Source: Candidatus Marinacidobacterales bacterium
GTDB taxonomy: Bacteria; Acidobacteriota; Vicinamibacteria; Marinacidobacterales; SMYC01
Assembly (NCBI GenBank): GCA_965224085.1
Contig: CBDCYI010000009.1
Location: 268,057-332,056, forward strand
Length of the DNA: 64,000 nucleotides
Reading direction: 5' to 3'
In this document: piece after piece, positions 28,209-44,262 of the stretch
Numbering within the stretch: position 1 is the stretch's first letter
Layout: every line of letters begins with the position of its first letter
Translations under genes and position numbers: made by a program
Notes under the pieces: generated by a model
Seen by the model: the letters and a program-made list of their open reading frames with translations, nothing else
The model's database searches: none
Told to the model about the DNA's origin: nothing

Positions 28209-28371
28209 TAGTCCCCTGGAACAGAGGTTCGTGGCCTAAAGCTCGAGGTCATTTTGTGGGCTGGAAAGGCGTGACGACGAAGTCATATTGGGATATTTCG
28301 AGGAGAAACAACGCAGCCAGCGCGCAAAAGGGCCCGAGATTTAGGTTACGAATCTCTGTTCCAGGGGACTA
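28209..28371. repeat. 163-bp element bounded by 18-bp perfect inverted repeats (TAGTCCCCTGGAACAGAG / CTCTGTTCCAGGGGACTA), MITE/REP-like or long bidirectional terminator hairpin
   Basis: 28209-28226 is the exact reverse complement of 28354-28371; the inner flanks are also imperfectly complementary (GTTCGTGGCCTAAA vs TTTAGGTTACGAAT). Sits between convergent genes; the right arm overlaps the leuB stop codon. Confidence 0.6.
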
Positions 28372-29439
28372 GGCGTTGTGCACGTAGTTCGCGATGTGGT
28401 CGCCTACCTCTTCGGTCGAGCGACCTTTGCCTTGAAGCGCTAAATCGGACGTCATGTAGCCTTTCCCGAGGGCGGACGCGATGCCGCGCTCGACGGTGCG
28501 TGCCTCTTCCTCTAGCTCGAAGGTATAGCGGAGCATCATGGCTAGCGACGCAATAGCGCCTATCGGATTCGCGAGGCCTTTTCCCACGATATCCGGCGCT
28601 GAACCGTGGACGGGCTCGAACAGGCCAACCGCTCCTCCGAGGCTCGCGGACGGAAGCATGCCGAGCGAGCCGGCGAGCATAGAGGCCTCATCGCTCAAGA
28701 TGTCTCCGAAAAGATTCGCCGTGAGCAGCACGTCGATGTTGGCCGGTTTGGCGACGAGCTCCATCGCGGCGCGATCGACGAGCATGTGCTCGAGCGTGAC
28801 GCCGGGGTAGTCCTTCGCGACCTCGGTAACGACTTCGCGCCACAGCTTCGACGTCTCGAGCACGTTCGCTTTATCCACCGAGGTCACATGCCGGCGTCTT
28901 CGCTTCGCAGCTTCGAACGCGATGCGCGCGACGCGGACGATCTCCTTCGTATGGTATGTCAGCGTGTTGACCGCCTGCCGATCCTGCCCCAAGCCCGAGA
29001 TGCCACGAGGCTCGCCAAAGTACAGCCCTCCGGTGAGCTCACGCACGATCAGAAGGTCCACGCCCTCGAGCGTTTCTGGCTTAAAGGGTGACGTCGGCGA
29101 GACGAATTGCGAGATGACGGGACGCAGATTCGCAAAGCTCTCGATCAATCGGCGCAGCTCGAGTAGTGCGAGCTCCGGTCGCTCGTTCGGAGGTAAGTGG
29201 TCGTGCCTCGGGTCGCCGACCGCACCGAGAAAAATCGCGGGGGCGCTCGTGCACGCCTCGCGCGTCTCGTCCGGAAATCCTTTGCCGGCAGCGTCGTAGC
29301 CGGCCGAGCCGAACGGATAAGGCGTCGTGTCGCTCTCGTGGCCAAACTTGGACGCCACCGCGTCCAAGGTCTTCATCGCCTCCGCGACCACTTCGGGGCC
29401 AATGCCGTCGCCAGGCAGAACCGTGATCATCAGTTTCAT
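28369..29439 (-). CDS. leuB: 3-isopropylmalate dehydrogenase (isocitrate/isopropylmalate dehydrogenase family)
   Basis: N-terminal ITVLPGDGIGPEVV and the family's NAD-binding/Mg motifs; 356 aa. Not flanked by leuC/leuD in this window. Confidence 0.7.
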   Translation of the reverse strand: MKLMITVLPGDGIGPEVVAEAMKTLDAVASKFGHESDTTPYPFGSAGYDAAGKGFPDETREACTSAPAIFLGAVGDPRHDHLPPNERPELALLELRRLIESFANLRPVISQFVSPTSPFKPETLEGVDLLIVRELTGGLYFGEPRGISGLGQDRQAVNTLTYHTKEIVRVARIAFEAAKRRRRHVTSVDKANVLETSKLWREVVTEVAKDYPGVTLEHMLVDRAAMELVAKPANIDVLLTANLFGDILSDEASMLAGSLGMLPSASLGGAVGLFEPVHGSAPDIVGKGLANPIGAIASLAMMLRYTFELEEEARTVERGIASALGKGYMTSDLALQGKGRSTEEVGDHIANYVHNA

Positions 29440-29518: not shown

Positions 29519-29542
29519 GGGGGGCGCCCGAAGGCGCCCCCC
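29519..29542. promoter_or_regulatory. Perfect GC hairpin (10-bp stem GGGGGGCGCC / GGCGCCCCCC, loop CGAA) in the leuB leader/divergent intergenic region
   Basis: Exact 10-bp inverted repeat seen in sequence, about 80 nt upstream of the leuB start (minus strand). On the minus strand it is followed by GCCUUCAUUUAGCGGAAGUUUUUCGAAGCUUUUCCC (U-rich patches), compatible with an attenuator or terminator of an unannotated transcript. Confidence 0.35.
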
Positions 29543-30160
29543 TATGATTCCAAAAGAACTGTTGCCAAGGATTATTTATGTGGAGTTGTTTAGGACGAGG
29601 TAAATGAAAAAGCAGGATAAAGTTGCGGGTTCGGTCGATGGATGGATAAGACCCGAGCTATGAGACACAGGCCTTTTGCGGACCCCTAGCGAACTGCTCG
29701 TCATGGAATCAACAAAGCGAGATCACTTTTTACTGTCCGATTAATACTAATGTCGTGTTTAGGTACAGCAATACTATAGGCGGCTTCCCTTTGGTGTCAA
29801 GACGAAAAAGAAGAGGCGGGACCAAACCACGCCCAATTGACTATCGATGAACGGTTTATCCGACAGGCGTCATTTCATACCGTAGATTTATGTAGGCGCT
29901 AGATCTTCCTTCCAATAATCAGAACCCGACTCAAACGGATGGCGCTTGATCTTCATTCGGCTTTTCGCGTAGTATTAGTGGCAGAGTTCGGGCTAATGCT
30001 AGTCCGGGCACCACAACCGGCACATCCACAACTGAAATCACGATTCTCATATCGCGATAGCTATCTATCGAGGGGATGAGGCGACTTTGTCGCTTCGTCG
30101 CGCTGCCGCCACCCAACATCGCAAGCGGCAGTGGTTCGAAATGTCGAAAGGAGCGGAATC

Positions 30161-30976
30161 GTGCAGGAGTTTCTAGTAGCGGTCGTGGCCTTTCCCACGA
30201 TCGTGTTCACGTTCGGTCTCGCGGTCGCCCTCCTCTACTGGCTCGTCGTGATCTTCGGCGCGCTCGACCTGGACTTTCTCGACAGCGCGCTCGGTCTCGA
30301 CAGCATGGATGCCGCTCTCGACGGAGCGCTCGAATCGATCGACGGGATGGCAGACGGGGCCGTCGAAGGTGTGGTGGAATCGATCGATGGTGCGGTCGAC
30401 GGCGCGGCGGAAGGCGCAGCGGACGCCGCTGATTCGGGAGATACGAGCGACGGGGCCCGGCAGGGCGCCCTTTCCGGGCTCTTGAACATGATGGGTGTTC
30501 GCGGCGTTCCCATCACGGTCGTTGCGAGCTTCGTGCTGCTCTGGGCATGGATTATCAGCATGGTCGGCTCCAAATTGCTGGGCGCGGCGGCGGCGACGTT
30601 CCTCGTCGGCGGCTTTCTCACAGGATCATCGGTCCTCGGTTCGTTGGTCCTTGCGGCGGTCACCGCTCGGCCTTTCCGGAAAATCTTCGTGACACCCTCT
30701 GCGCCCAGTCGCGTTTCGCTCGTCGGAAAAATCTGTATCGTGACTTCCGCGAAAGTCGACGGTGAGTTCGGCCGCGCCGAGATCGATGACGGCGCGACCG
30801 GTTTCGTCGCCGAAGTGCGATGCCCGCAGGACAACCAATTGACACGAGGCGCCAACGCGCTCGTGTATCGCTACGACCCGGCCGACGGCGTCTTTTTCAT
30901 TGGACCCGTCGACGATGCCTTGGCTACAGCATCGAATGTGGTCGATTCACAGTCTGGCTCGATAGGGGGAGGATAA
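30161..30976 (+). CDS. NfeD-family membrane protein (partner of SPFH/flotillin proteins)
   Basis: GTG start with RBS AAAGGAG 8 nt upstream. Two N-terminal TM helices, Asp/Ala/Gly-rich acidic segment (LDSMDAALDGALESIDGMADGAVEGVVESIDGAVDGAAEGAADAADSGD), two more TM helices, and a C-terminal NfeD OB-fold-like domain (GKICIVTSAKVDGEFGRAEIDDGATGFVAEVRCP...ALVYRYD). Stop TAA is immediately followed by the flotillin ATG. Confidence 0.65.
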   Translation: MQEFLVAVVAFPTIVFTFGLAVALLYWLVVIFGALDLDFLDSALGLDSMDAALDGALESIDGMADGAVEGVVESIDGAVDGAAEGAADAADSGDTSDGARQGALSGLLNMMGVRGVPITVVASFVLLWAWIISMVGSKLLGAAAATFLVGGFLTGSSVLGSLVLAAVTARPFRKIFVTPSAPSRVSLVGKICIVTSAKVDGEFGRAEIDDGATGFVAEVRCPQDNQLTRGANALVYRYDPADGVFFIGPVDDALATASNVVDSQSGSIGGG

Positions 30977-33025
30977 ATGTATTGGGTAATGGTCATTATC
31001 GCCGTCGGCGTGGGCGTGCTCATTCTGGGCATGGGCCTTTTGATGCTCATCGCCAAGTTCTATCGCAAGGTAGAACAAGGCAAAGCGCTCGTCGTCAACA
31101 AGATGAAGCAAGAGCCTGAAGTCACGTTTACCGGCGCCACGGTGCTCCCCGTAATCCACAAGGCCGAGGTCATGGATATCTCGGTGAAGACACTCGAGAT
31201 CGACCGGCGCGCGAAAGACGGACTGATCTGCCGTGACAACATTCGGGCCGACATCAAAGTCAACTTCTTCGTCCGCGTAAATAAACGCAAGGAAGATGTC
31301 ATCAGAGTCGCGCAGTCCATCGGCTGCGCCCGCGCCTCATCTCCCGAAACGCTCGACGAGCTCTTCAGCGCCAAGTTCTCCGAAGCGCTGAAGACGGTCG
31401 GCAAGCAGCTCGACTTCGTCGACCTCTACACGAAGCGCGACGAATTTCGCGACGCCATCATCCAGATCATCGGGCGCGACTTGAACGGCTACGCGCTCGA
31501 GGACGCGGCCATCGACTATCTCGAGCAGACCCCCCTCTCACATCTCGACCCGCAGAACATCCTCGACGCCCAAGGCATTCGCCGTATTACCGAGCTCACC
31601 GCGATCGAGCACATCCAAACGAACGAGTTCGAGAACAACGAGAAAAAAGCCATCACGAAACAGGACGTCGAGCGCGCAAAAGTCATCCTCGAGCTCGATC
31701 GCGAGCATGCGGACGCTGAGTCGAAGCAAAAGCGCGAGATCGAATCGGTACGCGCGCGCGAATTGGCCGCGCTCCAGCAAGTCCAGGCGGAAGAGCGGCT
31801 CAAGTCCGAAACGGCGCGCATCAAGACGGACGAAGAAGTCCAGGTCGCCGAGGAGAACAAGAATCGCCAGGTCCAGGTTGCTGCCAAGAACCGCGAGCGC
31901 ATTATTGGCGTCGAGACCGAGCGGGTCTTGAAAGACCGCCAGCTCGAACAGGTGGTCCGCGAACGTGAAGTCGAGCTCCAGCGCATCGACAAAGAGAAAG
32001 CGCTCGAAGTCGAGCGAAAAGAGATCCAGGACGTTATCCGCGAACGCGTCGCTGTCGAGCGCACCGTTGTCGAGGAACAGGAGCGCATCAAAGAGCTCCA
32101 GGTCGTCGAGGAGGCCAAGCGCACCAAGCAGGCCACCATCATTACGGCCGAGGCCGAAGCGGAAGAAGCCCTCGTCAAGGACATCAAAGCCGCCGAGGCC
32201 CAGGAGCAGGCTGCGAAGCACAAAGCCGTCGAGCGCATCACCCTCGCCGACGCCCAGCTCGAGGCCGCCGACCGCGACGCAAAAGCCAAGATCCGTCTCG
32301 CGGAAGGTACCCAGGCGGAAGCCGCAGCCGAAGGGCTCGCGGCCGCGAGGGTCAAAGAGGCCGACGCCGTCGCCTCCGAGAAGCACGGCCTCGCTGAAGT
32401 CCGGGTCCAGGAAGCGCAAGCGGGCGCTATCGAGCAAGTCGGCACCGCGGAAGCGACCGTGGTTCGCGAGAAAGGCGTCGCCGAGGCGCACACCATCCAG
32501 CAGAAGTTCGGCGCTGAGGCGAAAGGCCTCGCGGAAAAAGCCGAGGCGATGAAAGCGCTCGACAAAGACAGCCGCCAGCACGAGGAGTACCGCATCCGCC
32601 TCGAGAACGAGCGCCTGCTCGGTCTCGAAGCGATCCAAGCGCGCGAAGCCGTCGCCGCGCACAAAGCCCAGGTCCTCTCCAAAGCGCTCGAGTCGGCGGA
32701 TATCGACATCGTCGGCGGCGACGGTGTCTTTCTCGACCGCATGGTGAATTCCATCAGCATGGGCAAGGGCGTCGACGAGCTCGTCGATCAAAGCGACGTC
32801 ATCTCCGGGCTCGCCAAAGACTATTTCAATGGCGACAAGAACATCATCAAAGAGATCCGTCAGATCATGAAGGATTCCGGCATCGACGGAGGCATGCTCA
32901 AGGACATCACCATCGGGGCGCTTCTGACGAAGATCGCTACCGATATGGGAGGAGACGATCACGAAAAACTGAAGAAGCTTCAACGGCAAGCCAAAGCCTT
33001 GGGCATCGACGACGTTCGGCTATAA
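30977..33025 (+). CDS. Flotillin-family SPFH/band-7 protein (FloT/YuaG/YqiK-like), 682 aa
   Basis: N-terminal TM helix, SPFH domain (KALVVNKMKQEPEVTFTGATVLPVIHKAEVMDISVKTLEIDR...RDNIRADIKVNFFVRV), long E/A/K/R-rich coiled-coil flotillin region and a C-terminal tail. Confidence 0.85.
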   Translation: MYWVMVIIAVGVGVLILGMGLLMLIAKFYRKVEQGKALVVNKMKQEPEVTFTGATVLPVIHKAEVMDISVKTLEIDRRAKDGLICRDNIRADIKVNFFVRVNKRKEDVIRVAQSIGCARASSPETLDELFSAKFSEALKTVGKQLDFVDLYTKRDEFRDAIIQIIGRDLNGYALEDAAIDYLEQTPLSHLDPQNILDAQGIRRITELTAIEHIQTNEFENNEKKAITKQDVERAKVILELDREHADAESKQKREIESVRARELAALQQVQAEERLKSETARIKTDEEVQVAEENKNRQVQVAAKNRERIIGVETERVLKDRQLEQVVREREVELQRIDKEKALEVERKEIQDVIRERVAVERTVVEEQERIKELQVVEEAKRTKQATIITAEAEAEEALVKDIKAAEAQEQAAKHKAVERITLADAQLEAADRDAKAKIRLAEGTQAEAAAEGLAAARVKEADAVASEKHGLAEVRVQEAQAGAIEQVGTAEATVVREKGVAEAHTIQQKFGAEAKGLAEKAEAMKALDKDSRQHEEYRIRLENERLLGLEAIQAREAVAAHKAQVLSKALESADIDIVGGDGVFLDRMVNSISMGKGVDELVDQSDVISGLAKDYFNGDKNIIKEIRQIMKDSGIDGGMLKDITIGALLTKIATDMGGDDHEKLKKLQRQAKALGIDDVRL

Positions 33026-33043
33026 CGGAAGGCTCACGTAATC

Positions 33044-36000
33044 ATGAGCACGGACGTACAACAACAACCCGAGATCGAGCGCGGCACTTACGAGATCATC
33101 CGGGACCGCTTGCTCGGCCACGGCAAGACACTCGCCGAGAAAGCCGATGGACTCAACAGGAAACGCCTCGAGATCTTCGGAGGCACCGAGCTCGCGGTCC
33201 TGGGCAACGAGCGCATCCGGACCGAGAACAACTGCATCCCGCGCGACATCAAGGAGGTGGGTAACCACCTCCTGTTCGGCTATAACGTTTTCATCGGCCT
33301 CAAGCGCGAGACTCGCGTTGAGGACGTTTTCAGCCTTCACAGCTACGAGAAGACGGAGGACGGCTTCGTTTTTCGCAAAGTCGAAAAAAACTCTCCCGAC
33401 TACTTTCTCTCGGACGTGAAATTTCTAGAGGAGTTCCACGAGCTCTATCACTATTACAAGAACACCAAGCTCCTCCAGCTGAGACGGGTCAGCGAGAAGC
33501 TTCTCGCGGTATTCCAAATTGGCGAGAAGATCGAGGACGTGCGCGTGTTCCGCTGGGCCATCTCCACCGACGGCGCGGTTACCTATATCGACAACCGCGG
33601 CGAGCGCGACCACGTTTTCCCTCGGACCCATGACTTCGAATGGACGCTCACAGCGCGTGAAGAGCACGTGCAGGGCCGTCACCCGCACGTCAACATTCTC
33701 GACGAAGTTTTCGTCGAGACCGTCGGCGGCGATCTCACGATCAAGGTCGAGAACAACACCGAAGACGGCCAGGGTATCTATCGCGAGCCGGTGCTCGACG
33801 CCGACCAATCTTTGGACGACGCGGAAGTCCACTACGCAGAAGTGGGCACGCTCATTCTTCTGAAGATGCTCCCCTACCGCGAAACGGATTACCGATATCT
33901 CGTCTTCAACACGCGCACCAATCACGTCGATCGCATCGACGCCATCGGCCAATCCTGCGTACAGCTTCCCGAGGACCACGGCGTCATCTTTCCGGGCGGC
34001 TACTACCTGAAGAGCGGCCACACAAAGTCCTTCGAGCGCGATTTCCGCGGGATGGAGTTCCTGAGACGTCTGCGCTCCCCGAACGGCGAAGACGTCCTTT
34101 ACGCGTTTCACGAGCGTGAATCTGGGCGCACGATCCTACTTCCGTACAACATGATCCGGAAGGAGGTCGACAACCCGCTCAATTGCCACGGCTTCAGCCT
34201 CTATCCCGACGGCACGCTCGTCGTGTTCCGCGCTGGCGACGACGAGCCCAAACGCGTCCATGGGATGCAAGTCTGGCGCACGCCCTTCTTGAGCGAAGAG
34301 GCGGTGCAGTCGCGGCCGCCCACCGGCTCGTTCCTCGAGAAAGTGGGCAATGCCGAGCTCGTGCGCGGCGTCTCCGACTGCTTGAGCATTCGCCGCATGG
34401 TCGACGAGCAGGAGCCGACGCGGCAGAAATACGAGGACCTCGTCGCGGCGGCGGCACGCGTCATCGACAGCTATTACTGGCTCGACAACCCCGAGATTGG
34501 AGACCTGCGCGAGCCGCTCCGGAACGTTCACGAGTCCGCCGAGAGCATCATCGACGAGTTCGAAAAAGTCGAAGCGCTAAGGGCGCAAGCGAGAAGGACT
34601 CTCGACGAGGCCGGCGAGAAGGTCCAGGAGATCTTCCGAACCATTTATCCCGATTCCTGGACCTCGATCGACCAATATGTCGCCTGTCTCGCGAGCTTAC
34701 GCTCGGCGCGCGGGCACCTCATTACGCTCCGCGAAACACGCTATGTCGATCTCGCCCGAATCGACACGGTCGAAGCGGAGATTGTCGAGCGCTTCGATAA
34801 TGTCAGCGAGCGCGCCGTCGAGTTTCTTCTGCAAGACGAAGCACTACTTCCCTATCAAGAACGCGCGGGCGCGCTCGAGGACGGTGTTCCCGGCCTCTCG
34901 AAAGTTACCGAGGCGAACGCCCATCAAGACGCCCTCCAAGAGTTCGGCGACAGTCTCGATCTCTTGACCGATGTGGTCAGCTCGCTCGAGATCGACGACG
35001 CCACGGTCCGCACGCAGATTCTCGGGAACATCTCGGAGATCTTGGGAAGCCTCAACCGCGTCCGTGCGCTCATCACCAACCGGCGCAAAGAGCTTCTCGG
35101 CAAAGAAGGCATCGCTGAGTTCGGCGTGCAATTCCAGCTTTTGAGCCAAAGCGTAACGAGCGCTCTATCTCTCTCCGACACGCCCGAGAAATGTGACGAA
35201 CAGCTCTCGAAGCTCATGCTCCAGCTCGAAGATCTGGAAACCCGTTTCTCCGAGTACGAAGAGTTCACGGACGAGCTCACGACCAAGCGCGAGGAAATCT
35301 ACGAGGCGTTCAGCTCGAAGAAGCAGTCCCTTGTCGACCGGCGCCAGCGCCGCGCGCAAAACTTGATGCAGGCCGCCGAGCGTATTCTAGGAAGTGTGAC
35401 GCGGCGCGCGGAGACGTTCGAGACCGCCGACGACCTGAACGCCTATTTCGCTGCTGACGCGATGGTCGCCAAGCTCCGGAGCACGTCAAACAATTTGCGA
35501 GAGCTCGGCGACTCTGTCCATGCCGACGAGATCGACGGCCGACTCAAAGCCGCCAAAGAAGACGCCGCCCGCGGACTTCGCGACCGCCAGGAGATCTACG
35601 AGGACGGCGCCAACGTCATCAAGCTCGGCAGGCACCGCTTCAGCGTCAACACTCAGCCTCTCGAGCTCACCATGGTGCCTCGCGACGACGCCATGGCCTT
35701 TCATCTCACCGGCACCGGCTTCTACGAGCAGGTCGACGATGAGACCTTCGGAAAAACGCAGGATTTCTGGTCGCAAGAGCTCGTTTCCGAAACGCGTTCA
35801 GTCTATCGGGGCGAATATCTGGCCTATTGCGTGCTCGAAGACGCAGAGCTCGGAGATTCCGAGTTGTCGCTCAAGAAGCTCCTCCAAGCCACCCGCGGCG
35901 AAGGGGCGCTTCTGGGCATCATACGCGACTATGCGGCTCTGAGATATGACGAGGGGTATGAGCGCGGCCTCCACGACGCCGACGCGACGCTGATCTTGCA

Positions 36001-38416
36001 AAAGATCCTGGGCATGCACGAGACCGCGGATCTGCTTCGCTTCACCCCGAACGCGCGCGCACTGGCTACCGTTTTCTGGGCGCTCTACGACGACCGGAAA
36101 AAGCGCGCGGCCTGGGAAAGCCAAGCTCGCAGCCTCGTCCGCCTCCGCACCCAATTCGAGCACACGGAGGCGATGACGGAGCTCGGTGGCGAGCTCAACG
36201 AAGCGATCGCGACCCATCTCGCCGAGATCGGGATCGATGTGCCGACGCAGGCGTCCCGTCTAGCCGGCGCCTACCTGCTCGAAGAGATCGCGCGCGAGCC
36301 GCAGAAATTCGTCCTGAGCGCGGATGCAAACGAGCTCAAGCGCGCTTTCGAAAAGCACTTGCGTGAGTCCGGCGGCGACCGCGAGCTCGAACAGGACTTG
36401 CGCGCGCTCAGCGACACGCCCGTGCGCGCTTACGAGCTCACGGAGGCGTGGATGGCCGCCTTTCTCTCGAGCTCGGAAAACGGCGATCGCTTGGCTCGCT
36501 CTTCCCTCGAGGCCGTCGTCGCGCTTCTTTTCGAAGACAAAGTGAGCCGAGACACCTCGAGCGCGCAGTCCAAAGTCACGGTCGAGGGGCTCCTTGGCCA
36601 GCACCCCCGCATGCCGCAAGGCCGTATGGAGCTCCATCTAGACGAATTCCTCTCGCGGCTCGGCCATTTTCGACATCGACAAGTCAGAGGCTTCAGAGAG
36701 TTCCAAAAAGCCCGCCACGACGTGCTCGAGCACGAGCGTGAGAATCTACGTCTCGACGAGTACAAGCCCAAGGTCATGTCGTCTTTCGTGCGCAACCGGC
36801 TCATCAACGACGTGTATCTACCGCTCATCGGCGACAACCTCGCGAAACAGATGGGGGCTCTCGGCGACGCCAAGCGCACCGACCTCATGGGGATGCTTCT
36901 CCTCATCTCACCTCCGGGCTACGGCAAGACGACTTTGATGGAGTACCTCGCCAACCGGCTCGGCCTCGTCTTCATGAAGATTAACGGCCCCGCCCTCGGC
37001 CACTCGGTCACATCGCTAGATCCAGGCGAAGCACCGAACGCCACCGCGCGCCAGGAGGTCAACAAGCTCAACCTCGCTTTCGAGATGGGCAACAACGTCC
37101 TTCTCTACATCGACGACATCCAGCACACCCATCCCGAATTTCTCCAGAAATTCATCTCGCTCTGCGACGCACAGCGAAAAGTGGAAGGTGTTTGGAAAGG
37201 TCGGACGCGCACTTACGATCTGCGCGGCAAGAAGTTCGTCGTGTGCATGGCGGGAAACCCTTACACGGAATCCGGCGAAAAATTCCAAATCCCAGACATG
37301 CTCGCGAACCGCGCCGATACCTACAATCTAGGCGACATCCTCGAAGGCAAAGACGACTTCTTCGCGCTTTCCTACATCGAGAACGCGCTCACGTCGAACG
37401 CCGTCCTCGCGCCCCTCACGACGCGCGAGCAAAGCGATATCGAGTTGCTCGTGCGCATGGCGAATGGCGAGGCGATTCAAGCGGATCAGTTGAAGCACGG
37501 CTACTCCGCCGTCGAGATCGGCGAGATCCAGTCCGTTTTGAAGAAGCTTCTCAAAGTCCAGCAGGTGCTCCTCGCGATCAACCAGCAATATATTCGCTCG
37601 GCGTCGCAAGAAGACGCCTATCGCACCGAGCCGCCTTTCAAGCTCCAGGGGAGCTACCGCAACATGAACAAGCTCGCTGAGAAGATCGTGGCCGCGATGA
37701 ACGACGACGAGCTCGAAAGCCTCATCGACGACCACTATCTCGGCGAATCGCAGACTTTGACGACGGGCGCCGAAGAGAACCTTCTCAAGCTTGCCGAGAT
37801 GCGCAGCCGGATGAGCGAGAGCCAGAAGGCACGCTGGGAGGAGATCAAAAGCGGTTTCGTTCGAGTGCAACGCATGGGGGGCGGCGACGACGACCCCGCG
37901 ACGAGGCTCACGGGACAGCTCAGCCTGGTCTCCGAGCATCTCGAAGACATCGGTCAGAGCATCGAGCGCGCCGCCTCGAGTGCTGCTTCTCGCCCGCAAG
38001 CGATCTCGGCGGATCCCGACCTCAGCGCGTTCACCGCGCGGGACGTCGAGGTCAAGCTCGACCTCGCTCCCTATATCGACAAGCTCCACGAGCTTCTCGA
38101 GGCCTTCCAGAACGGGCAAACACAACTCGCCGCCGCACCGCAGATCAAGGGCGAGGCCCAGGCGCCGCCAGCGGATTACGAGCTCATCTCACGCGAGTCC
38201 TACCTCATCGAAGGCACCCTCATCCCGTTGATGCGCTTCATGGCGCATCGCTTCCGGGGCTATCGCGGGGTGGACGACCCGAAAATCAAAGCGCTCATAC
38301 AGAGACTCGAATATGTCGACGATCTCCAGGAGCTCGTCAACGCGCTCGAGAAAATCAACGTCTCCGCCCTCTCGAACATAACCGACGAAGAGGAGACGGA
38401 CGAGGCCTCGACATGA
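33044..38416 (+). CDS. Giant (1790 aa) protein of unrecognised N-terminal architecture with a C-terminal MoxR/AAA_5-like ATPase domain
   Basis: Uninterrupted ORF with RBS GGAAGG upstream. Single P-loop LLISPPGYGKTTLMEYLANRLGL and Walker B NVLLYIDDIQHTHPEF, with sensor region FVVCMAGNPYTESGEKFQIPDMLANRADTY (AAA_5/dynein-related fold), at about residues 1285-1430. About 1280 aa upstream and 350 aa downstream show no motif I can assign. Confidence 0.7.
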   Translation: MSTDVQQQPEIERGTYEIIRDRLLGHGKTLAEKADGLNRKRLEIFGGTELAVLGNERIRTENNCIPRDIKEVGNHLLFGYNVFIGLKRETRVEDVFSLHSYEKTEDGFVFRKVEKNSPDYFLSDVKFLEEFHELYHYYKNTKLLQLRRVSEKLLAVFQIGEKIEDVRVFRWAISTDGAVTYIDNRGERDHVFPRTHDFEWTLTAREEHVQGRHPHVNILDEVFVETVGGDLTIKVENNTEDGQGIYREPVLDADQSLDDAEVHYAEVGTLILLKMLPYRETDYRYLVFNTRTNHVDRIDAIGQSCVQLPEDHGVIFPGGYYLKSGHTKSFERDFRGMEFLRRLRSPNGEDVLYAFHERESGRTILLPYNMIRKEVDNPLNCHGFSLYPDGTLVVFRAGDDEPKRVHGMQVWRTPFLSEEAVQSRPPTGSFLEKVGNAELVRGVSDCLSIRRMVDEQEPTRQKYEDLVAAAARVIDSYYWLDNPEIGDLREPLRNVHESAESIIDEFEKVEALRAQARRTLDEAGEKVQEIFRTIYPDSWTSIDQYVACLASLRSARGHLITLRETRYVDLARIDTVEAEIVERFDNVSERAVEFLLQDEALLPYQERAGALEDGVPGLSKVTEANAHQDALQEFGDSLDLLTDVVSSLEIDDATVRTQILGNISEILGSLNRVRALITNRRKELLGKEGIAEFGVQFQLLSQSVTSALSLSDTPEKCDEQLSKLMLQLEDLETRFSEYEEFTDELTTKREEIYEAFSSKKQSLVDRRQRRAQNLMQAAERILGSVTRRAETFETADDLNAYFAADAMVAKLRSTSNNLRELGDSVHADEIDGRLKAAKEDAARGLRDRQEIYEDGANVIKLGRHRFSVNTQPLELTMVPRDDAMAFHLTGTGFYEQVDDETFGKTQDFWSQELVSETRSVYRGEYLAYCVLEDAELGDSELSLKKLLQATRGEGALLGIIRDYAALRYDEGYERGLHDADATLILQKILGMHETADLLRFTPNARALATVFWALYDDRKKRAAWESQARSLVRLRTQFEHTEAMTELGGELNEAIATHLAEIGIDVPTQASRLAGAYLLEEIAREPQKFVLSADANELKRAFEKHLRESGGDRELEQDLRALSDTPVRAYELTEAWMAAFLSSSENGDRLARSSLEAVVALLFEDKVSRDTSSAQSKVTVEGLLGQHPRMPQGRMELHLDEFLSRLGHFRHRQVRGFREFQKARHDVLEHERENLRLDEYKPKVMSSFVRNRLINDVYLPLIGDNLAKQMGALGDAKRTDLMGMLLLISPPGYGKTTLMEYLANRLGLVFMKINGPALGHSVTSLDPGEAPNATARQEVNKLNLAFEMGNNVLLYIDDIQHTHPEFLQKFISLCDAQRKVEGVWKGRTRTYDLRGKKFVVCMAGNPYTESGEKFQIPDMLANRADTYNLGDILEGKDDFFALSYIENALTSNAVLAPLTTREQSDIELLVRMANGEAIQADQLKHGYSAVEIGEIQSVLKKLLKVQQVLLAINQQYIRSASQEDAYRTEPPFKLQGSYRNMNKLAEKIVAAMNDDELESLIDDHYLGESQTLTTGAEENLLKLAEMRSRMSESQKARWEEIKSGFVRVQRMGGGDDDPATRLTGQLSLVSEHLEDIGQSIERAASSAASRPQAISADPDLSAFTARDVEVKLDLAPYIDKLHELLEAFQNGQTQLAAAPQIKGEAQAPPADYELISRESYLIEGTLIPLMRFMAHRFRGYRGVDDPKIKALIQRLEYVDDLQELVNALEKINVSALSNITDEEETDEAST

Positions 38417-38480
38417 ACGCGCTAGACCTGCGCGCCATGTTACGATTCCCAAAACCGGTTCTCACCGAAGGGAGTTCGTG

Positions 38481-39236
38481 ATGGGGTTATTCGAGCGGAT
38501 CCGAGCGGTCTGGTACGCCATAATCAACAAATCCGTCACTGAGATGGAGGACGCGCACGTGATCGCACTCGCGGAGCACAAGCTCCAGCAGGCCACCGAG
38601 CGACTGAAAGAGGCGCGCCAAGGCTTGATCAGCTATCAAGCACTCGTTTTGAAAGTCGAAGGGCAAGTCGGAAGCGAAAAGTCGCGCATCGCGAGCGTCA
38701 CCGGGCAGATCAAGAACCACTTGAAGGCCAATCAGGAAGAGATGGCCGGCCAGCTCGCTCTCGAGCTCGCTCGGGTCAAAGGCGAGCTCGAAAGCAACAC
38801 CGAGCAGCTCGCACAACATCGCGAGAGCTACGAGAACAACCTTCTGAAGATGAAAGCGGCGCTCAAGGACATCGAGACGGCCAAGCAGGACCTCGACAAG
38901 AAGAAAGCCGCGCTTCAGATGGAGAAGGCTTTGGCCGAAGTCTCCGAGACCGCCGGCGCGCTCAACACCCAGTTCGATGTTTCTTCCGACATCGGCTCGA
39001 TCCTGAGCCGCGTCGACGACCAGATCAATAAAGCCAAAGCGCGCTCGAAGGTCGCCTCCGATCTGAGCGATCAAGGCATCGATCAGCTCAAAGCGAAGCA
39101 ATCGGCAGACAAGGCCGAAGCTCAGGAGCTTCTCGCGCAGTTCAAGATCGAGCAGGGGCTCGCCGAGCCGTCTTCAGAAGCAAGTGAGAAAACTGTAGGA
39201 CCGCAGAGAGAAGCCACGCCAGAGTCCGGTGAATAG
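38481..39236 (+). CDS. pspA: PspA/IM30/Vipp1-family protein (bacterial ESCRT-III superfamily)
   Basis: Canonical N-terminus MGLFERIRAVW...MEDA (compare PspA MGIFSRFADIV..., Vipp1 MGLFDRLGRVV...); about 250-aa all-helical coiled-coil protein with E/K/Q heptads; RBS GGGAG upstream. Confidence 0.8.
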   Translation: MGLFERIRAVWYAIINKSVTEMEDAHVIALAEHKLQQATERLKEARQGLISYQALVLKVEGQVGSEKSRIASVTGQIKNHLKANQEEMAGQLALELARVKGELESNTEQLAQHRESYENNLLKMKAALKDIETAKQDLDKKKAALQMEKALAEVSETAGALNTQFDVSSDIGSILSRVDDQINKAKARSKVASDLSDQGIDQLKAKQSADKAEAQELLAQFKIEQGLAEPSSEASEKTVGPQREATPESGE

Positions 39237-40950
39237 CCCTTTGGGAAGCGGCGCGCCCACTTGGGCGCGGGAGCTTGCCTCGAGCTATGTCAGTGGGGCT
39301 GCAAGCGTCTTCCTTCTCTATGGAAACGTCCACGACCTCGTTCCGGTCACGGACTCGGACGAGTTCATCTCGCTCGACGACTATCTCGCCACGCAGCTCT
39401 TCGGCCAACGGGACATCGTTCTCGCCTACGATCGCGGTAGCGGCATCCGCTTTCTCGCTCCCGGGGATGCCGACCGTCGGGCGTCCATGCAAGAGGACTT
39501 TTACAAGACGCTCAAAGCCGTGGACTCGGTAAGCGGCACAAGCTTCGCGAGCTCGAGGCCTAAAGATCCCAAAGTCGTGTTCGAGCTCCTCGACCGCTAC
39601 ATCCTCCACAAGCTCGTCGAAACGCCTGCAGACGGCAATCGCAAGAGCCTCGCGATCGTGATCTGCTATGTCGAGACCATCACGCCGGCCGTCGATGGCT
39701 CGTGGCTCACGGGCGAGCTCGGCGCCAACCTCATCAAAGTGCTCAATTGGGCCAACGACCCTGGGATTCGAAGCGCTGATGTGACGCTTTGTCTCGTCAC
39801 GGAGAACCTCGGCGACGTAAACCGCCGCCTCGTCGAGAACCCATTCATCTCTAAAGTAGACGTCGAGCTCCCGGACGAGACGACGCGTGAGCGCTACGCG
39901 AGGCATTTGTTGAAAGACGCAGCAATGGCGAAGACGGTGGCCCGTGAAGGCAACGGGCTGACGCTCGTCGGTCTCGCACAGGCGGTCAGTGGCTCCGTCG
40001 AGCTCGCCAATTTGCAAGCGGCCAAAAAGGAGCTCATCGAGAAACAGTGCTTCGGCCTCGTCGAGTTCGTTGCTCCGAGCTACGACCTCGACATGGTTGT
40101 CGCGCCCGAGGCAGTCAAAGACCGCCTCGAGCAAGACGTGTCGCTATTCAAGAAGGGACGGCTCGAAGCGCTCCCGATGGGCTATCTCCTCTGCGGGGTC
40201 ATCGGCACCGGCAAGACATTTACGGCAACATGCTTTGCAGGAAGCCTCGGCATCCCAACGATCGTCTTCAAGAACCTCCGCAGCAAGTGGGTCGGAAGCT
40301 CCGAAGGCAATCTCCAAAAAGTGCTCTCGGTGATCAAAGCCCTCGGCCCCGTCGTCGTCGTCGTCGATGAAGCCGATGCCGCGCTGGGAAGCCGCGGGTC
40401 GAGCGGGGACAGCGGCACGTCGAGCCGCATGTTCGCGATGATCTCGTCACTCATGAGCGACACCGGTTACCGGGGGCGCATCCTGTGGATGCTCCTCACT
40501 TGCCGTCCTGACATGTTGCCCGTCGATTTGAAGCGGCAAGGTCGCTGCGAGGTCCACATCCCGCTCTTCCCGCCCGAGACTGAGAAGGCCCGCCACCAAA
40601 TGTTTCTCGCGATGGCGCGCACAAACGGCGTCGCGATCGCTCCCAGCGACGTTCCCACCCTGCCGGAAGAGCTCTCGGGCGCGGACATCGAAAGTCTGCT
40701 CGTGCAATGCGTCCGCCGCGCCGCGATCGCGGGCGCTGCTTCGCTCTCCGCCGCGCATATCCGTGACACGCTTGCCCACTTTCGATCACCGGATTATGGT
40801 CTCGAGAAGGAGCTGCAGCAGCTCGTCGCCATCCGCGAGAGCACCGACCCCAACTTCATCCCAAAGCGACTGCGAACGCGTTACGGAGCGCCGGACAAGG
40901 CGATAGCCCTCGAGCACCGCATTCAGGAGATCGCAGCACTTCTCCAATGA
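39229..40950 (+). CDS. Classic-clade AAA+ ATPase (Vps4/CDC48/FtsH-like AAA domain) with a 280-aa N-terminal domain
   Basis: GTG start overlapping the pspA stop by 8 nt. Walker A GVIGTGKTF, SKWVGSSEGNL (compare Vps4/spastin SKWxGESEK), Walker B VVVVDEADA, second region of homology LLTCRPDMLPVDLKRQGRCEVHIPLFPP (Arg fingers). Confidence 0.8.
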   Translation: MNSPLGSGAPTWARELASSYVSGAASVFLLYGNVHDLVPVTDSDEFISLDDYLATQLFGQRDIVLAYDRGSGIRFLAPGDADRRASMQEDFYKTLKAVDSVSGTSFASSRPKDPKVVFELLDRYILHKLVETPADGNRKSLAIVICYVETITPAVDGSWLTGELGANLIKVLNWANDPGIRSADVTLCLVTENLGDVNRRLVENPFISKVDVELPDETTRERYARHLLKDAAMAKTVAREGNGLTLVGLAQAVSGSVELANLQAAKKELIEKQCFGLVEFVAPSYDLDMVVAPEAVKDRLEQDVSLFKKGRLEALPMGYLLCGVIGTGKTFTATCFAGSLGIPTIVFKNLRSKWVGSSEGNLQKVLSVIKALGPVVVVVDEADAALGSRGSSGDSGTSSRMFAMISSLMSDTGYRGRILWMLLTCRPDMLPVDLKRQGRCEVHIPLFPPETEKARHQMFLAMARTNGVAIAPSDVPTLPEELSGADIESLLVQCVRRAAIAGAASLSAAHIRDTLAHFRSPDYGLEKELQQLVAIRESTDPNFIPKRLRTRYGAPDKAIALEHRIQEIAALLQ

Positions 40951-41456
40951 AAGACGGCCTCGTTCGCAGACAAGTCAAGCGCATCGGCCTCGGCGTCTTC
41001 CACGCGCGTCTGTTTCTTCACCGCCTTCAGGCCGACACGCGTTACGAGCTCGGCGGCGAGTGCATCCGCTGCGGCAAATGTTGCTTGGAGCCAGGAATTC
41101 AAGTCGGCCGCATCGCTTGGTACCTCCCCGGCTGCCGGCGGGTCTTTCTCTGGTGGCACCGAGTTGTCAACGGCTTCACGCTCAAGGAGGCCCGGCGGGA
41201 AGACCGCGTGTTCATTTTTGAGTGCAGCCATTTCGACTGGGCGTCGCGGAGCTGCGACAGCTACCACTCCCGGCCCGGAATGTGCCGCGACTACCCGCGC
41301 CTGTTCCTCGAACAGGCCAACCCCGAGTTTTTCGACGAGTGCGGTTTCAAAGCGCTCGCTCGAGGCCGGGACAGCCTCATCCAAATTCTCGAGAAAGAAT
41401 CTCTTACGCCGCAGCAGCTGGCCAAGCTGAAAAAAGGCCTTTATCTCGAAGATTGA
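40947..41456 (+). CDS. YkgJ-family cysteine-cluster protein (UPF0153; putative Zn/Fe-binding)
   Basis: ATG overlaps the AAA+ stop (ATGA). Motifs CIRCGKCC and CSHFDWASRSCDSYHSRPGMCRDYP match the YkgJ CxxCxxCC...C..C..RP..CR.YP pattern. Confidence 0.6.
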   Translation: MKDGLVRRQVKRIGLGVFHARLFLHRLQADTRYELGGECIRCGKCCLEPGIQVGRIAWYLPGCRRVFLWWHRVVNGFTLKEARREDRVFIFECSHFDWASRSCDSYHSRPGMCRDYPRLFLEQANPEFFDECGFKALARGRDSLIQILEKESLTPQQLAKLKKGLYLED

Positions 41457-41566
41457 GATGAAAGGCTTGCTGCCGCGATTCGACTCGGTTACATTAGAGG
41501 TTGAGCCCTCTCCACACACAAGAAAGCCAAAGCTCTGCCGGCCTTGCTTAGGGGTGTCGGAACCGC

Positions 41567-42199
41567 ATGCGTAGACTGAAGATCCGGAGTTATCTCGCCA
41601 CCGGTCTACTAGTCTGGATTCCGCTCGCCGTGACCCTCTTCGTCCTCCGGGTGCTGATAAATTTGATGGATCAGTCCCTCCTGCTGATCCCGCCGTCGTT
41701 GCGTCCTGAGAATCTATTGGGGTTCAGCATCCCGGGCCTGGGCGTCATTCTCACGTTCACGCTCGTCACCGTGACCGGTTTTTTGGCCGCGAACTTTCTC
41801 GGCAAACGGCTATTGGCGACCTCGGAAGGGCTTCTCGCACGTATCCCGCTTGTGAGCTGGGTCTATTCCGGCGTAAAGAAGGTGGCGGAAACGCTCTTGT
41901 CGCCGACGAGCGAGTCGTTTCGCAAAGTGCTCCTGATGGAGTACCCTCGCAAAGGCATCTGGAGCGTCTGCTTTCAAACGTCGAGCGAGCTTGGCGAGAT
42001 ACAGATTCGTACGGGGAAGGAAGTGCTCTGCGTGTTCGTCCCCACGACCCCGAACCCCACCTCTGGTTTCGTCATTTTCGTTCCCCGCGATGAGGTCATC
42101 GAGCTCGATATGACGGTCGACCAAGCATTGAGGATGATCATCTCGCTCGGCGTCGTGGTTCCCGAGTGGCGCCGCCGCGAGCTCATGCCGGTAGGTTGA
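41567..42199 (+). CDS. DUF502-family membrane protein
   Basis: Two N-terminal TM helices (LLVWIPLAVTLFVLRVL; GLGVILTFTLVTVTGFLAANFLG) and a conserved DUF502 core (RIPLVSWVYSGVKKV...VLLMEYPRKGIWSVCFQT). Confidence 0.6.
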   Translation: MRRLKIRSYLATGLLVWIPLAVTLFVLRVLINLMDQSLLLIPPSLRPENLLGFSIPGLGVILTFTLVTVTGFLAANFLGKRLLATSEGLLARIPLVSWVYSGVKKVAETLLSPTSESFRKVLLMEYPRKGIWSVCFQTSSELGEIQIRTGKEVLCVFVPTTPNPTSGFVIFVPRDEVIELDMTVDQALRMIISLGVVVPEWRRRELMPVG

Positions 42200-42396: not shown

Positions 42397-43908
42397 CTAT
42401 GGGGACCCGCCGACCAAGCTCAGGAAATCCGTCATCGGAACGATGCGTCCGTGGACGGGCACGATCGTCTCAACGTCTAGGTTCAGCCGCTCTATGTTCT
42501 CGTAGAAGGTCACGTTGCTGGCATTGGGGCTCGCTGCCGGTGCGCCACGCGGCGAGTAGACGTCCGCCTCCATCACGATCTTTTCCTTCGGCAGATAGGC
42601 GATCAACATCCCCGCGACGTGAGCGAGACCTTGAACATGATGGATTTCCATCGTGCGCACCCCGTCGCTCAAGACGTATTTCTCCCGTAACGTTTCGAAC
42701 GTGTAGCCTTCCGCGGCCTCTTCCGGCGGATAGAGGGAGAGACGGTCCGGCTCCAAAATCCATGGACGCGCCGTCAAGATCTCTTCGTAATAAGCGCGAT
42801 TGCCCTCGTGGCCAATGATGGTCGCGCCCTCGTGGACATAGGCGCGCATGCCGCCCAAGTGGTCCCAGTGGTGATGCGAGTTCACCAAGAAGCCGATCGG
42901 CTTTCCCGGAATGAGCTTTTGCACTTCCTCGATGACCGCGAGCGAGCGGCTTCCGTTTAAAGGGGCCTCGAAGACCACCGAGTAGTCCTGGAACTCGACG
43001 ACGACGCTGTTGTGCGACGAGCCTCCCAGATACCACACCCCGTCCGCCAGCTCTCTCGAATCCACCCGGCGCGGTGGAACGGTTGCCCCCCGCACGGCGG
43101 CGGGGACGCTCGGAGCGGCGCCACTCACGTTCGCCTGAACGTCGCTCACGACGAGCCCAAAGGAATGGTCGCCGCCGCTGACGTTCGGTTTGCGCTCATT
43201 GTCGTCGTAATCGTGATGCTGGTGGAAACGGGTGGGAAACTTCACCCCGTCGAAGTCGCGGTAGTCGGCATACATGGTCTCATAGTACATATCGCCGACG
43301 ATGGGGTTGGGGATCCAGGTCTGAATTCGGACGACCTGGTTCTCGCTGTTGAATGTAGCGTTAACCCGGTACTTGCCGAGCGCTTCGAAGGAGACGATGG
43401 TCACGCGCTCTCCGTATTCTTCCCGCGAAATAGCGGTCGGGATCCCCACCATCGCTGCTTTGATGAAGCCGTGCGGGGTGAGCCAGATCTCGAGCTGTCG
43501 GACCTCCGCGGCAGCGGGCCTCGGAACCACATTGTCTCCTTGCAGGTTCCAAGCGAATGCGCCGCTCACGACGAACACCTCCCGCCGTTCCCCGACGATC
43601 GGCGTCCTGCCGCCGCCTCGTGAGCTGTAATTCCCCTGAACCCGGACCGTCTCTTCCTTCGAGCTCTTTGCCTCGAAGTCGATGGTCCGGGTGTAGCTCT
43701 TTACTTCGGTCCGCGGCCAATCCAGTTCCGGGCTGTAGTTTTGGCCCACCGCCCCTTTCCAACCGGTCCCGGAATAGCGAATCGATCTCAGGTTGGCGAC
43801 ACCTAACTCCTCTGCCGCGGCCCGCAAGACGTTGTGGGCATCTTGGGCGGCGACCGTCGCGGCCATAAAAACCAGCACGGCACCCAAAGCCAAACGCGTG
43901 TCTCTCAT
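42397..43908 (-). CDS. Secreted MBL-fold metallo-hydrolase with N-terminal accessory domain
   Basis: Signal peptide MRDTRLALGAVLVFMAATVAAQ; MBL zinc motif VNSHHHWDHLGG plus downstream His/Asp ligands (HEGATIIGHEGN; HVQGLAHVAGM). Confidence 0.6.
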   Translation of the reverse strand: MRDTRLALGAVLVFMAATVAAQDAHNVLRAAAEELGVANLRSIRYSGTGWKGAVGQNYSPELDWPRTEVKSYTRTIDFEAKSSKEETVRVQGNYSSRGGGRTPIVGERREVFVVSGAFAWNLQGDNVVPRPAAAEVRQLEIWLTPHGFIKAAMVGIPTAISREEYGERVTIVSFEALGKYRVNATFNSENQVVRIQTWIPNPIVGDMYYETMYADYRDFDGVKFPTRFHQHHDYDDNERKPNVSGGDHSFGLVVSDVQANVSGAAPSVPAAVRGATVPPRRVDSRELADGVWYLGGSSHNSVVVEFQDYSVVFEAPLNGSRSLAVIEEVQKLIPGKPIGFLVNSHHHWDHLGGMRAYVHEGATIIGHEGNRAYYEEILTARPWILEPDRLSLYPPEEAAEGYTFETLREKYVLSDGVRTMEIHHVQGLAHVAGMLIAYLPKEKIVMEADVYSPRGAPAASPNASNVTFYENIERLNLDVETIVPVHGRIVPMTDFLSLVGGSP

Positions 43909-44262
43909 AGCGCCTCCATAATTGACCCAGATCAACATCCCCACGCCCTCGACGCCAACGGGCGGGCGTTCCGAGCGACTAACGGGCGACGCCTAAAGTT
44001 TGTCCATCGCCGCCGCCATGTTGTCCATCGCGAGCTCGATGAGCTTGCGGGACGTTCCGAGGTTCATGCGCATGTGTAACATTTTTGTAATCCCTCCTGA
44101 TCGCAGCCATGGCGACGCCCCAGCCCTGCCAGCGAACTCCTGGCCGCTCATTATAGCTATCGACTGGATGTTGCGCACTGCTAGACTTAGACTAAACATC
44201 GTCTTCGCAGGCCCGTAACCAAGGAAACCGTTGAGCCATCAAACGGACGGGGGAAACGCCTT

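Follow-up and report, generated by a model that had tools for sequence, protein, structure and literature searches.

Tandem juxtaposition of a flotillin-giant ATPase triad and a PspA-tandem AAA+ module on the genome of a Marinacidobacterales bacterium

PspA/IM30 proteins belong to the ESCRT-III superfamily, polymerise into rods or rings and bind membranes through helix alpha0. In ESCRT-III/Vps4 systems, the MIT domain of the ATPase Vps4 binds MIM motifs of the ESCRT-III proteins. Vps4 itself derived from Cdc48 (PMC10936438), and a 2025 review states that a Vps4-like ATPase "appears absent in bacteria" (PMC7619361). Ravi et al. 2024 (mSystems, Table S3; PMC11237479) listed both modules of the locus that is described here, namely a triad of genes for an NfeD-type protein, a flotillin-type protein and a giant ATPase, and a dyad of PspA with an AAA+ ATPase. 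According to the same source, abbreviated triad operons without PspA are widespread, and longer dyad operons include genes for a PBPb-OmpA binding protein, a permease and an ABC ATPase. The locus lies on contig CBDCYI010000009.1 of Candidatus Marinacidobacterales bacterium (positions 268,057 to 332,056; this whole stretch of 64,000 nucleotides (nt) is called the window) and consists of seven co-directional genes, g1 to g7. The triad (g1-g3) is referred to as module A and g4-g7 as module B, with AAA573 denoting the family of g5 and dyad denoting PspA plus AAA573. It is a new combination of two computationally described, experimentally untouched modules, and it probably represents two separable modules for membrane remodelling that are juxtaposed in tandem in this lineage only. 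The original prediction, made from the sequence alone, had not recognised the composition as a described system; this holds for the exact combination, whereas both halves, and another linkage of PspA to the triad, are present in PMC11237479.

The seven genes are as follows (aa, amino acids):
30161-30976, + strand: g1, a probable YqiJ/YuaF-type (short NfeD-like) inner-membrane protein, assigned from orthologues and gene context
30977-33025, + strand: g2, a probable YqiK-like SPFH/flotillin-type scaffold, assigned from orthologues
33044-38416, + strand: g3, a 1790-aa giant (DUF3686, DUF7902 and a MoxR-like AAA+), assigned with Pfam
38481-39236, + strand: g4, a PspA/IM30 protein (ESCRT-III superfamily) of an AAA-linked clade, assigned with Pfam
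39229-40950, + strand: g5, a 573-aa tandem classical AAA+ protein, assigned from alignment and profile matches
40947-41456, + strand: g6, a CxxCxxCC (YkgJ-family) Cys-cluster protein, assigned with Pfam (PF03692)
41567-42199, + strand: g7, a DUF502 membrane protein, assigned with Pfam (DUF502, E 1.6e-33)

All seven open reading frames (ORFs; 30131/30161-30976, 30977-33025, 33044-38416, 38478/38481-39236, 39229-40950, 40947-41456 and 41567-42199) are located on the + strand with tight junctions, and both modules (A, 30161-38416; B, 38481-42199) are contained in one transcription-unit-sized fragment. The GTG start of g1 at 30161 is preceded, at a distance of 7 nt, by GGAG. At the g1/g2 junction the stop codon TAA abuts the ATG (30974-30979) with a GGGGGAGGA ribosome-binding site ahead, g2 and g3 are separated by an 18-nt spacer with GGAAGG ahead of the ATG at 33044, and a spacer of 61-64 nt with GAAGGGAG precedes the start of PspA, placed by gene callers at the ATG at 38481 (giving 251 aa). 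ORFs g4 and g5 overlap by 8 nt (39229-39236, GTGAATAG), g5 and g6 meet at ATGA (40947-40950), and 110 nt separate g6 from g7. The TAA/ATG junction, the 8-nt overlap and the ATGA had been pointed out in the original prediction and can be read directly from the sequence. A consensus scan of the + strand gave no convincing match to a sigma-70 promoter within the cluster, and no convincing terminators were identified between its genes, with 14 hairpin-like sites found compared to 14.2 expected from shuffled sequence. The two modules are probably co-transcribed.

Searches for the giant identified more than 6854 homologues, many of them 56-62% identical over their full length and originating from different phyla. 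It was found in at least 595 GTDB species (one genome scanned per species), spread over Actinomycetota, Myxococcota, Gammaproteobacteria, Planctomycetota and Acidobacteriota, with an identity across phyla of 49-62% over approximately 1,800 aa. Neighbourhoods were compared in the best 80 loci each for the triad and for AAA573, and the frequencies given here are accordingly not unbiased. A homologue of g2 (47-70% identity) was found directly upstream of the giant, on the same strand and in the same order, in 78 of the 80 triad loci, and a g1 homologue upstream of g2 in 70, the exceptions being mostly contig ends. Conservation of the g1-g2-g3 triad spans five phyla or more. Genes for PspA, AAA573, CxxCxxCC or DUF502 proteins (g4-g7) were downstream of the triad in none of the 80 loci. 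The same-strand genes that do follow it vary, the most frequent being PLD-like proteins (eight loci), SACK1 (seven), rhomboid (six) and TelA (two), and these partners hint at a processing of membrane lipids or membrane proteins.

Homologues of AAA573 number in the thousands. Clustered at 50% identity, its N-terminal AAA domain (D1) gave 347 clusters with a threshold of E<=1e-10 and 991 with E<=1e-3. Of the 32 AAA573 loci in which 5 kb or more of sequence precede the AAA gene, 29 have a PspA gene ahead of it on the same strand. Distant loci (40-61% identity) were identified among Acidobacteriota, Gemmataceae and other metagenome contigs, where the distance between PspA and the AAA gene is either 74-214 nt or 3.4-4.7 kb, the longer layout accommodating genes for an NMT1/OmpA binding protein, an ABC permease, an ABC ATPase and a protein of approximately 280 aa. 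Five loci (L087, L089, L171, L172 and L175) have this long dyad operon, with NMT1/PBPb-OmpA, the ABC permease and ATPase, sometimes a VWA gene, and the ~280-aa protein before the AAA; the last is possibly the divergent membrane-anchored Snf7-like protein of PMC11237479. PspA and AAA573 are a genuinely co-conserved pair. A triad was found beside AAA573 in none of the 80 loci, two close relatives of the window aside.

In three close relatives of the window (L081-L083, with giants 92%, 75% and 72% identical to that of the window) the order g1-g5 is kept, and so are the flanks, with an ECF (extracytoplasmic function) sigma factor, DUF8173, TerB and Iso_dh on one side and Amidohydro and ELFV_dehydrog on the other. 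As these flanking genes are unrelated to the cluster, vertical inheritance is enough to explain the conserved order. Two sister acidobacterial genomes (L173 and the P0157 contig, with AAA proteins 71% and 67% identical) have the same flanks and lack the triad, Iso_dh being directly followed by PspA-AAA-CxxCxxCC-DUF502. The occurrence of the same neighbourhood without the triad identifies the latter as a separable block of 8.3 kb. An intergenic block (window ~29519-29800) is conserved in all four aligned genomes; past it, PspA begins after ~55 nt in L173, whereas in the window ~360 nt are followed by the triad. No direct or inverted repeats were found flanking the triad, such that its insertion and its deletion are not distinguishable. 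The 61-nt spacer between g3 and g4 is unlike the region upstream of PspA in L173, the ribosome-binding site aside, and because of this change PspA is probably transcribed by read-through from the triad. Genomes of the L173 type and of the window type constitute a natural presence/absence pair for the triad. That this one syntenic site has the triad in some genomes and lacks it in others was observed directly, as were gene content, domain architectures and the separate conservation of the modules.

The original prediction had placed the seven genes in one apparent operon and had seen in them a strong candidate for a dedicated machine of membrane remodelling/repair or vesiculation. This interpretation is partly supported. 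Gene order across genomes does not support a single conserved unit of seven genes; a functional coupling of the modules is plausible. The strongest form of the proposal, in which all seven genes make up one obligately co-functioning machine for membrane repair or vesiculation, is improbable. It would suit the tight or overlapping junctions, the single orientation, the membrane-associated or remodelling-type nature of all products and the repeated meetings of the triad with PspA-type modules described below. It would equally suit the g1-g5 order of L081, L082 and L083, were it not that these relatives share unrelated flanks. Set against it are the 80 triads of which none has a dyad downstream, the 80 AAA573 loci without a triad (close relatives aside) and the sister genomes that have the same synteny without the triad. 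The last two genes are also clade-specific: g6 was found behind the AAA gene only in the acidobacterial clade of the window, where g7 is kept behind it, and no g7 was found in distant AAA573 loci. In L083 an IS66-family element (TnpB_IS66 and DDE_Tnp_IS66, L083 18661-20817) stands in place of g6, which is lost, with DUF502 displaced by ~6 kb, and this replacement shows g6 and g7 to be dispensable for g1-g5 staying together. The preferred reading is a juxtaposition of two separable modules, and the seven-gene combination appears to be restricted to one acidobacterial clade.

Whether the neighbouring modules have anything to do with each other was approached through other places where a triad and a PspA meet. 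In 11 of the 80 triad loci, all from Gammaproteobacteria, the gene just ahead of g1 encodes a bona fide PspA, with Pfam E-values as low as 5e-53, and in six of the 11 this YjfJ-type PspA is accompanied by DUF2170/YjfI. In two Planctomycetota metagenome-assembled genomes (L078 and L174) the triad lies head-to-head with a dyad of a PspA-like protein and an AAA. The PspA-like protein (~280 aa) has an amphipathic N-terminus and a coiled coil, and matches the PspA profile in hhalign with 67% probability (E 5e-5); the AAA is a full-length AAA573 homologue, 25-27% identical, aligned with 100% probability in hhalign across D1 and D2. A weak match to the AAA573 profile 8 kb from the giant in a further locus (L035) was treated as generic AAA similarity. 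These meetings of triad and PspA, in three arrangements and three phyla, are hard to ascribe to chance.

This bears on the view that the adjacency is incidental, the triad having landed upstream of an unrelated PspA operon, or having been lost elsewhere, with modules that do not interact. Most triads and most dyads stand alone, both modules are widespread and complete in the absence of their partner, and the tandem arrangement was met in one acidobacterial clade only, all of which such a view accommodates. It accounts less readily for three independent kinds of adjacency (the YjfJ-type PspA in 11 of 80 loci, the two Planctomycetota head-to-head loci and the tandem here) or for the loss from the window PspA of an upstream region that is present in L173. 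A precedent for coupling of SPFH proteins to PspA also speaks against it, as YdjI is needed for the localisation of PspA in B. subtilis (PMC8581546, also cited in PMC10936438). Taken together, an incidental adjacency is unlikely. Since independent encounters of the triad with PspA-type modules are seen in three lineages, we put cooperation of the two juxtaposed modules at about even chances.

The PspA of the window matches PF04012 (PspA_IM30) with 44.1 bits (cut-off 33.9), its residues 3-226 covering positions 1-218 of the 220 of the profile, and has the N-terminal MGLFERIRAVWYAI segment. It is 33-36% identical to PspAs that adjoin AAA573 homologues elsewhere. One feature at its C-terminus was identified:
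39138-39200, + strand: the C-terminal tail QFKIEQGL...EKTVG of g4 (aa 220-240), from an alignment of three AAA-linked PspA subgroups

The consensus of this tail, QFKxExGL...(E/K)KT(V/I/L)G, is common to three AAA-linked PspA subgroups that are only ~22-36% identical, and in an alignment it was not found in the YjfJ-type PspAs beside the Gammaproteobacteria triads. It is a candidate signal that the ATPase may use for docking or threading.

The partner of this PspA, g5, matches Pfam AAA with an E-value of 1.5e-20 and, as judged from its sequence, is a tandem AAA with a dead D1, because the profile of its N-terminal half matches p97/Cdc48 (D1 and D2, E 2e-6, from the Walker-B-equivalent strand to the lid). 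D1 (aa ~20-285) is degenerate, with LYGNVHD where a Walker A motif is expected (LHGNVHD in AAA573), and D2 (aa ~300-510) is intact, with GTGKT, VVVVDEADA and a second region of homology with LKRQGR. An internal hhalign comparison of the N- and C-terminal halves of AAA573 was not significant (probability 0.4%). The nearest solved relatives of D2 are the D2 domains of VAT/Cdc48/p97, AFG2 and NVL (E ~3e-33), and Vps4 was not among the 60 best. Scores of g5 were far under every NCBIfam family cut-off, with CdvC reaching 29.4 bits compared to a cut-off of 650, and Pfam identified no MIT domain, the N-terminal 285 aa being the degenerate AAA. The original prediction was right to link PspA with a classical-clade AAA+, and the ATPase was not found to occur routinely without PspA, which would have counted against that link; its description as Vps4-like was imprecise. 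By analogy, AAA573 would be a functional counterpart of Vps4 and not its orthologue.

Within the giant, which has Pfam matches to DUF3686 (E 8e-212), DUF7902 and AAA/AAA_5, three regions were delimited:
33191-34288, + strand: predicted N-terminal beta-propeller of g3 (~aa 50-415), the core of DUF3686, from AlphaFold model md83c3a827c45 and Foldseek
34331-35608, + strand: predicted long helical/coiled-coil region of g3 (~aa 430-855), with DUF7902 at aa 599-683, from model helices at 430-854 and Pfam
36791-37468, + strand: predicted MoxR-type AAA+ module of g3 (~aa 1250-1475), from AlphaFold model m0b38352d775a and conserved motifs

The model of the N-terminal 1190 aa (mean predicted local distance difference test, pLDDT, 81.8) runs from a helix through the beta-propeller, all-beta at residues 51-412, to long helices spanning ~430 aa, after which come a small beta domain and a helical one. 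Foldseek matched the propeller to the beta-propellers of YncE, PON1 and CyRPA with a template-modelling score (TMt) of ~0.3. A "protocoatomer-like" propeller-solenoid likeness (Foldseek top matches Nup, IFT-A, clathrin and RZZ) was not relied on, with a TM of ~0.1 and a root-mean-square deviation above 25 A. The AAA+ module is contained in the model of the C-terminal 631 aa (pLDDT 71.3), and its nearest folds are NorQ and CbbQ of the MoxR family (TMt 0.55-0.62), followed by RuvB and MCM. Its motifs are a Walker A GYGKT, a Walker B YIDDIQH, a sensor-1 MAGNP and PDMLANRAD, giving the pattern GNPxxE...PxxLxxR. Folds, the Pfam AAA_5 match and this pattern all agree with the MoxR-like nature that was first proposed for it. 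In 13-42 diverse homologues the Walker B is an invariant hhhhDD and not hhhhDE (window 37100-37120, aa ~1354-1361), which may indicate slow or regulated hydrolysis. Sequence searches gave the giant no solved relatives beyond the P-loop, and it has no protease domain and no transmembrane (TM) segment, appearing soluble.

DUF3686 is described in Pfam as an "ATPase involved in DNA repair" and NCBI homologues of the giant are named "DNA repair ATPase". This name is probably an annotation artefact, as the architecture and the context (NfeD, flotillin, PspA, PLD, rhomboid) give it no backing; a literature search for DUF3686 yielded no paper. The propeller-MoxR proteins form a very large, highly conserved family without experimental or structural characterisation.

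The gene identities of the original prediction proved essentially right, with NfeD and flotillin recognisable through orthologues, since the window proteins g1 and g2 are too divergent for a family match of their own in Pfam, NCBIfam or PADLOC. Among the orthologues of g1, four of 16 matched YqiJ_N (PF21001) in Pfam, and the g1 profile gave a weak match to the NfeD domain of YuaF (2k14, E 0.38). YqiJ and YuaF are established NfeD homologues that are paired with the flotillins YqiK and YuaG (PMC2636767). Protein g1 is laid out as an N-terminal TM helix, an acidic repeat linker, more TM helices and a beta-rich C-terminal domain. The linker (30318-30407), which connects the first TM helix to the remainder of the protein, is encoded by a tandem 45-nt repeat and is acidic and rich in Asp, Gly and Ala (LDGALESIDGMADGAV / EGVVESIDGAVDGAA), and its length is highly variable among orthologues. 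For g2, Band_7/SPFH was matched at 5e-8 by four of 19 orthologues (49-67% identical), the orthologue of L083 likewise has a Band_7 match, and the orthologue profile found nothing in the PDB at E<=1. Its layout is a TM helix, visible in the sequence as an N-terminal hydrophobic helix, an SPFH domain, a long coiled coil and a C-terminal region. As in SPFH2 and NfeD pairs, the Band_7 domain lies behind an N-terminal anchor and the NfeD-type gene is immediately upstream, and the pairing proposed for these two genes was strongly borne out in conjunction with the giant by the 78 and 70 of 80 loci given above.

The most likely mechanism of each module can be drawn up, in all its biochemical steps, by analogy. 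On the cytoplasmic side of the inner membrane, proteins g1 and g2 would form an SPFH cage, as known for HflK/C, QmcA-YbbJ and flotillin cages. Following the examples of HflKC-FtsH and prohibitin-mAAA, the giant could attach to the cage by way of its beta-propeller and coiled-coil arm, and its MoxR-type ring could then remodel the cage or its clients. PspA would polymerise on stressed membrane, and the tandem AAA might engage the C-terminal tail of PspA and extract or unfold subunits, disassembling and recycling the polymer. The CxxCxxCC and DUF502 proteins would be clade-specific accessories. That flotillin cage and giant mark or organise membrane patches at which a PspA polymer is first assembled and then actively disassembled by the dedicated Cdc48-like AAA+, making one machine of the two modules, is possible though doubtful. 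If true, AAA573 would be the true functional counterpart of Vps4 in bacteria, and the repeated meetings of triad and PspA would reflect a general partnership of SPFH and ESCRT-III proteins.

Several points weigh against reading the locus as two membrane-remodelling modules in lineage-specific juxtaposition, in addition to the sampling of the best 80 loci that was mentioned above. The direction of the event fits either way, as triad insertion or as triad loss. The identities of g1 and g2 in the window come from their orthologues, and the PspA-like protein of the Planctomycetota is a probable PspA homologue. The hydrolytic activity of the giant is uncertain, because its Walker B is DD and not DE. 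MoxR systems typically have a VWA-domain partner, and Pfam identified none among the seven genes or their flanks. Neither module has experimental work behind it, no report of experiments on either ATPase having been found in the literature.

An anti-phage or conflict system acting on membranes, formed by the triad or by the whole cluster, was also considered. PLD-family genes follow the giant in eight of 80 loci, related SPFH loci are patchy in Pseudomonas (PMC13086221), and AAA573 has weak matches to IetA/IteA (IetA E 2e-14, PADLOC), all of which would suit a defence role. These signals did not extend to family membership, as judged with PADLOC and with NCBIfam IteA, for any of g1, g2, g3 and g5: PADLOC gave no match for g1 and g2 and only a P-loop-level match for g3, and IteA scored 48 bits compared to a cut-off of 510. 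An identity of 49-62% across phyla would furthermore be unusual for a defence gene such as the giant would then be, and the window offers no mobile-element or defence-island context. We regard a defence function as very unlikely.

The remaining genes of the region were identified as follows. Protein g6 matches PF03692 with 26.5 bits, just over the cut-off of 23. Beyond g7 lies a convergent gene of the metallo-beta-lactamase fold (42397-43944, - strand; Lactamase_B). On the other side, the gene of an ECF sigma factor (25532-26086) lies in a set at 25532-28175 together with genes for a zf-HC2 anti-sigma-like/DUF8173 protein and a TerB-domain protein. Synteny of this set extends to every relative, whether or not the triad is there, and the set might regulate the PspA operon in response to envelope stress. 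The region upstream of the Iso_dh gene (28369-29439, - strand) contains, at 29519-29800 on the - strand, a non-coding element that is both conserved and structured. It begins with a sigma-70-like promoter (TTGACA-16-TATAGT at 29800..29773, 11 of 12 matches), past which the window shares ~230 conserved nt with L081, L082 and L173 (which lacks the triad), with two nearly invariant unpaired stretches, and it ends in a GC hairpin of 10 perfect base pairs followed by a T-rich tail (29542..29519), ~80 nt ahead of the Iso_dh start. RNAalifold predicted 42 pairs in this element, eight with compensatory changes among the four sequences, and Rfam gave no match to the upstream intergenic region at E<=1. 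The element is a candidate for a new leader, riboswitch or attenuator, or small RNA.

Compared to the known systems, module A has the same three-gene core and order as the triad of PMC11237479 (Dokdonia ANH61663.1), with a giant as third gene that is predicted to have a propeller, coiled coils and a C-terminal AAA+, with an order conserved across phyla, and with the occasional PLD partner also recovered here. Those operons differ in that their PspA is of the YjfJ type, encoded upstream and accompanied by DUF2170/CesT-Tir, whereas in the window PspA is encoded downstream, belongs to the AAA-linked clade with a distinct tail and comes with its own ATPase, and there is no CesT/Tir gene. Of two papers on SPFH proteins, one (SO1377/COG2268) concerns a two-gene YqiJK-type pair without the giant, and the other (P. 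aeruginosa, PMC13086221) does not mention the giant ATPase.

The dyad resembles that of PspA with the "Inactive-classical-AAA + classical-AAA" protein of PMC11237479 (Clostridium AEY64320/AEY64321) in its tight linkage to PspA and in the degenerate and active AAA domains, an architecture that g5 has. The ABC/OmpA variants of that source were likewise recovered in Acidobacteriota and other phyla. The window differs in that its dyad is of the short form, which has no transporter genes, with the flotillin triad ahead of it and CxxCxxCC and DUF502 behind it.

HflK/C-FtsH, prohibitin-mAAA and QmcA-YbbJ similarly combine an SPFH scaffold with an NfeD-type or AAA+ partner at the membrane, unlike which the giant of the window is a soluble-looking MoxR-type protein with a propeller and without a protease domain or TM segment. 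In ydjFGHI of B. subtilis, PspA and an SPFH protein are encoded together as they are here; that SPFH protein is of another subfamily, Pfam identified no YdjG (ZnR/NTF2-like) or YdjH (TPM) domains in the window locus, and the latter has two ATPases that the B. subtilis operon lacks. Some archaeal ESCRT loci carry genes for SPFH and substrate-binding (ProX-type) proteins (PMC10936438), an interesting parallel, as is the derivation of Vps4 from Cdc48 in the same source.

The locus shares with ESCRT-III/Vps4 (CdvB/CdvC) a gene of the ESCRT-III superfamily beside a gene for a classical-clade AAA+, and the conserved PspA tail could recruit the ATPase in the manner of MIM motifs. It differs in an ATPase that is without MIT, is a tandem AAA with a dead D1 and not a single cassette, falls far short of the CdvC cut-off and is nearest to the D2 of Cdc48/VAT, and g5 should therefore be seen as an analogue of Vps4 and not as a member of its family. 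The disassembly of bacterial ESCRT-III polymers (PspA/Vipp1) is an open question, for which the PspA-linked tandem AAA is a concrete candidate, with a family of ~350-1000 clusters at 50% identity and PspA at ~90% of the adequately sampled loci. To the described modules the present analysis adds the conserved PspA tail motif, the genome pair with and without the triad, and independent juxtapositions of triad and dyad that argue for cooperation between SPFH and ESCRT-III proteins.

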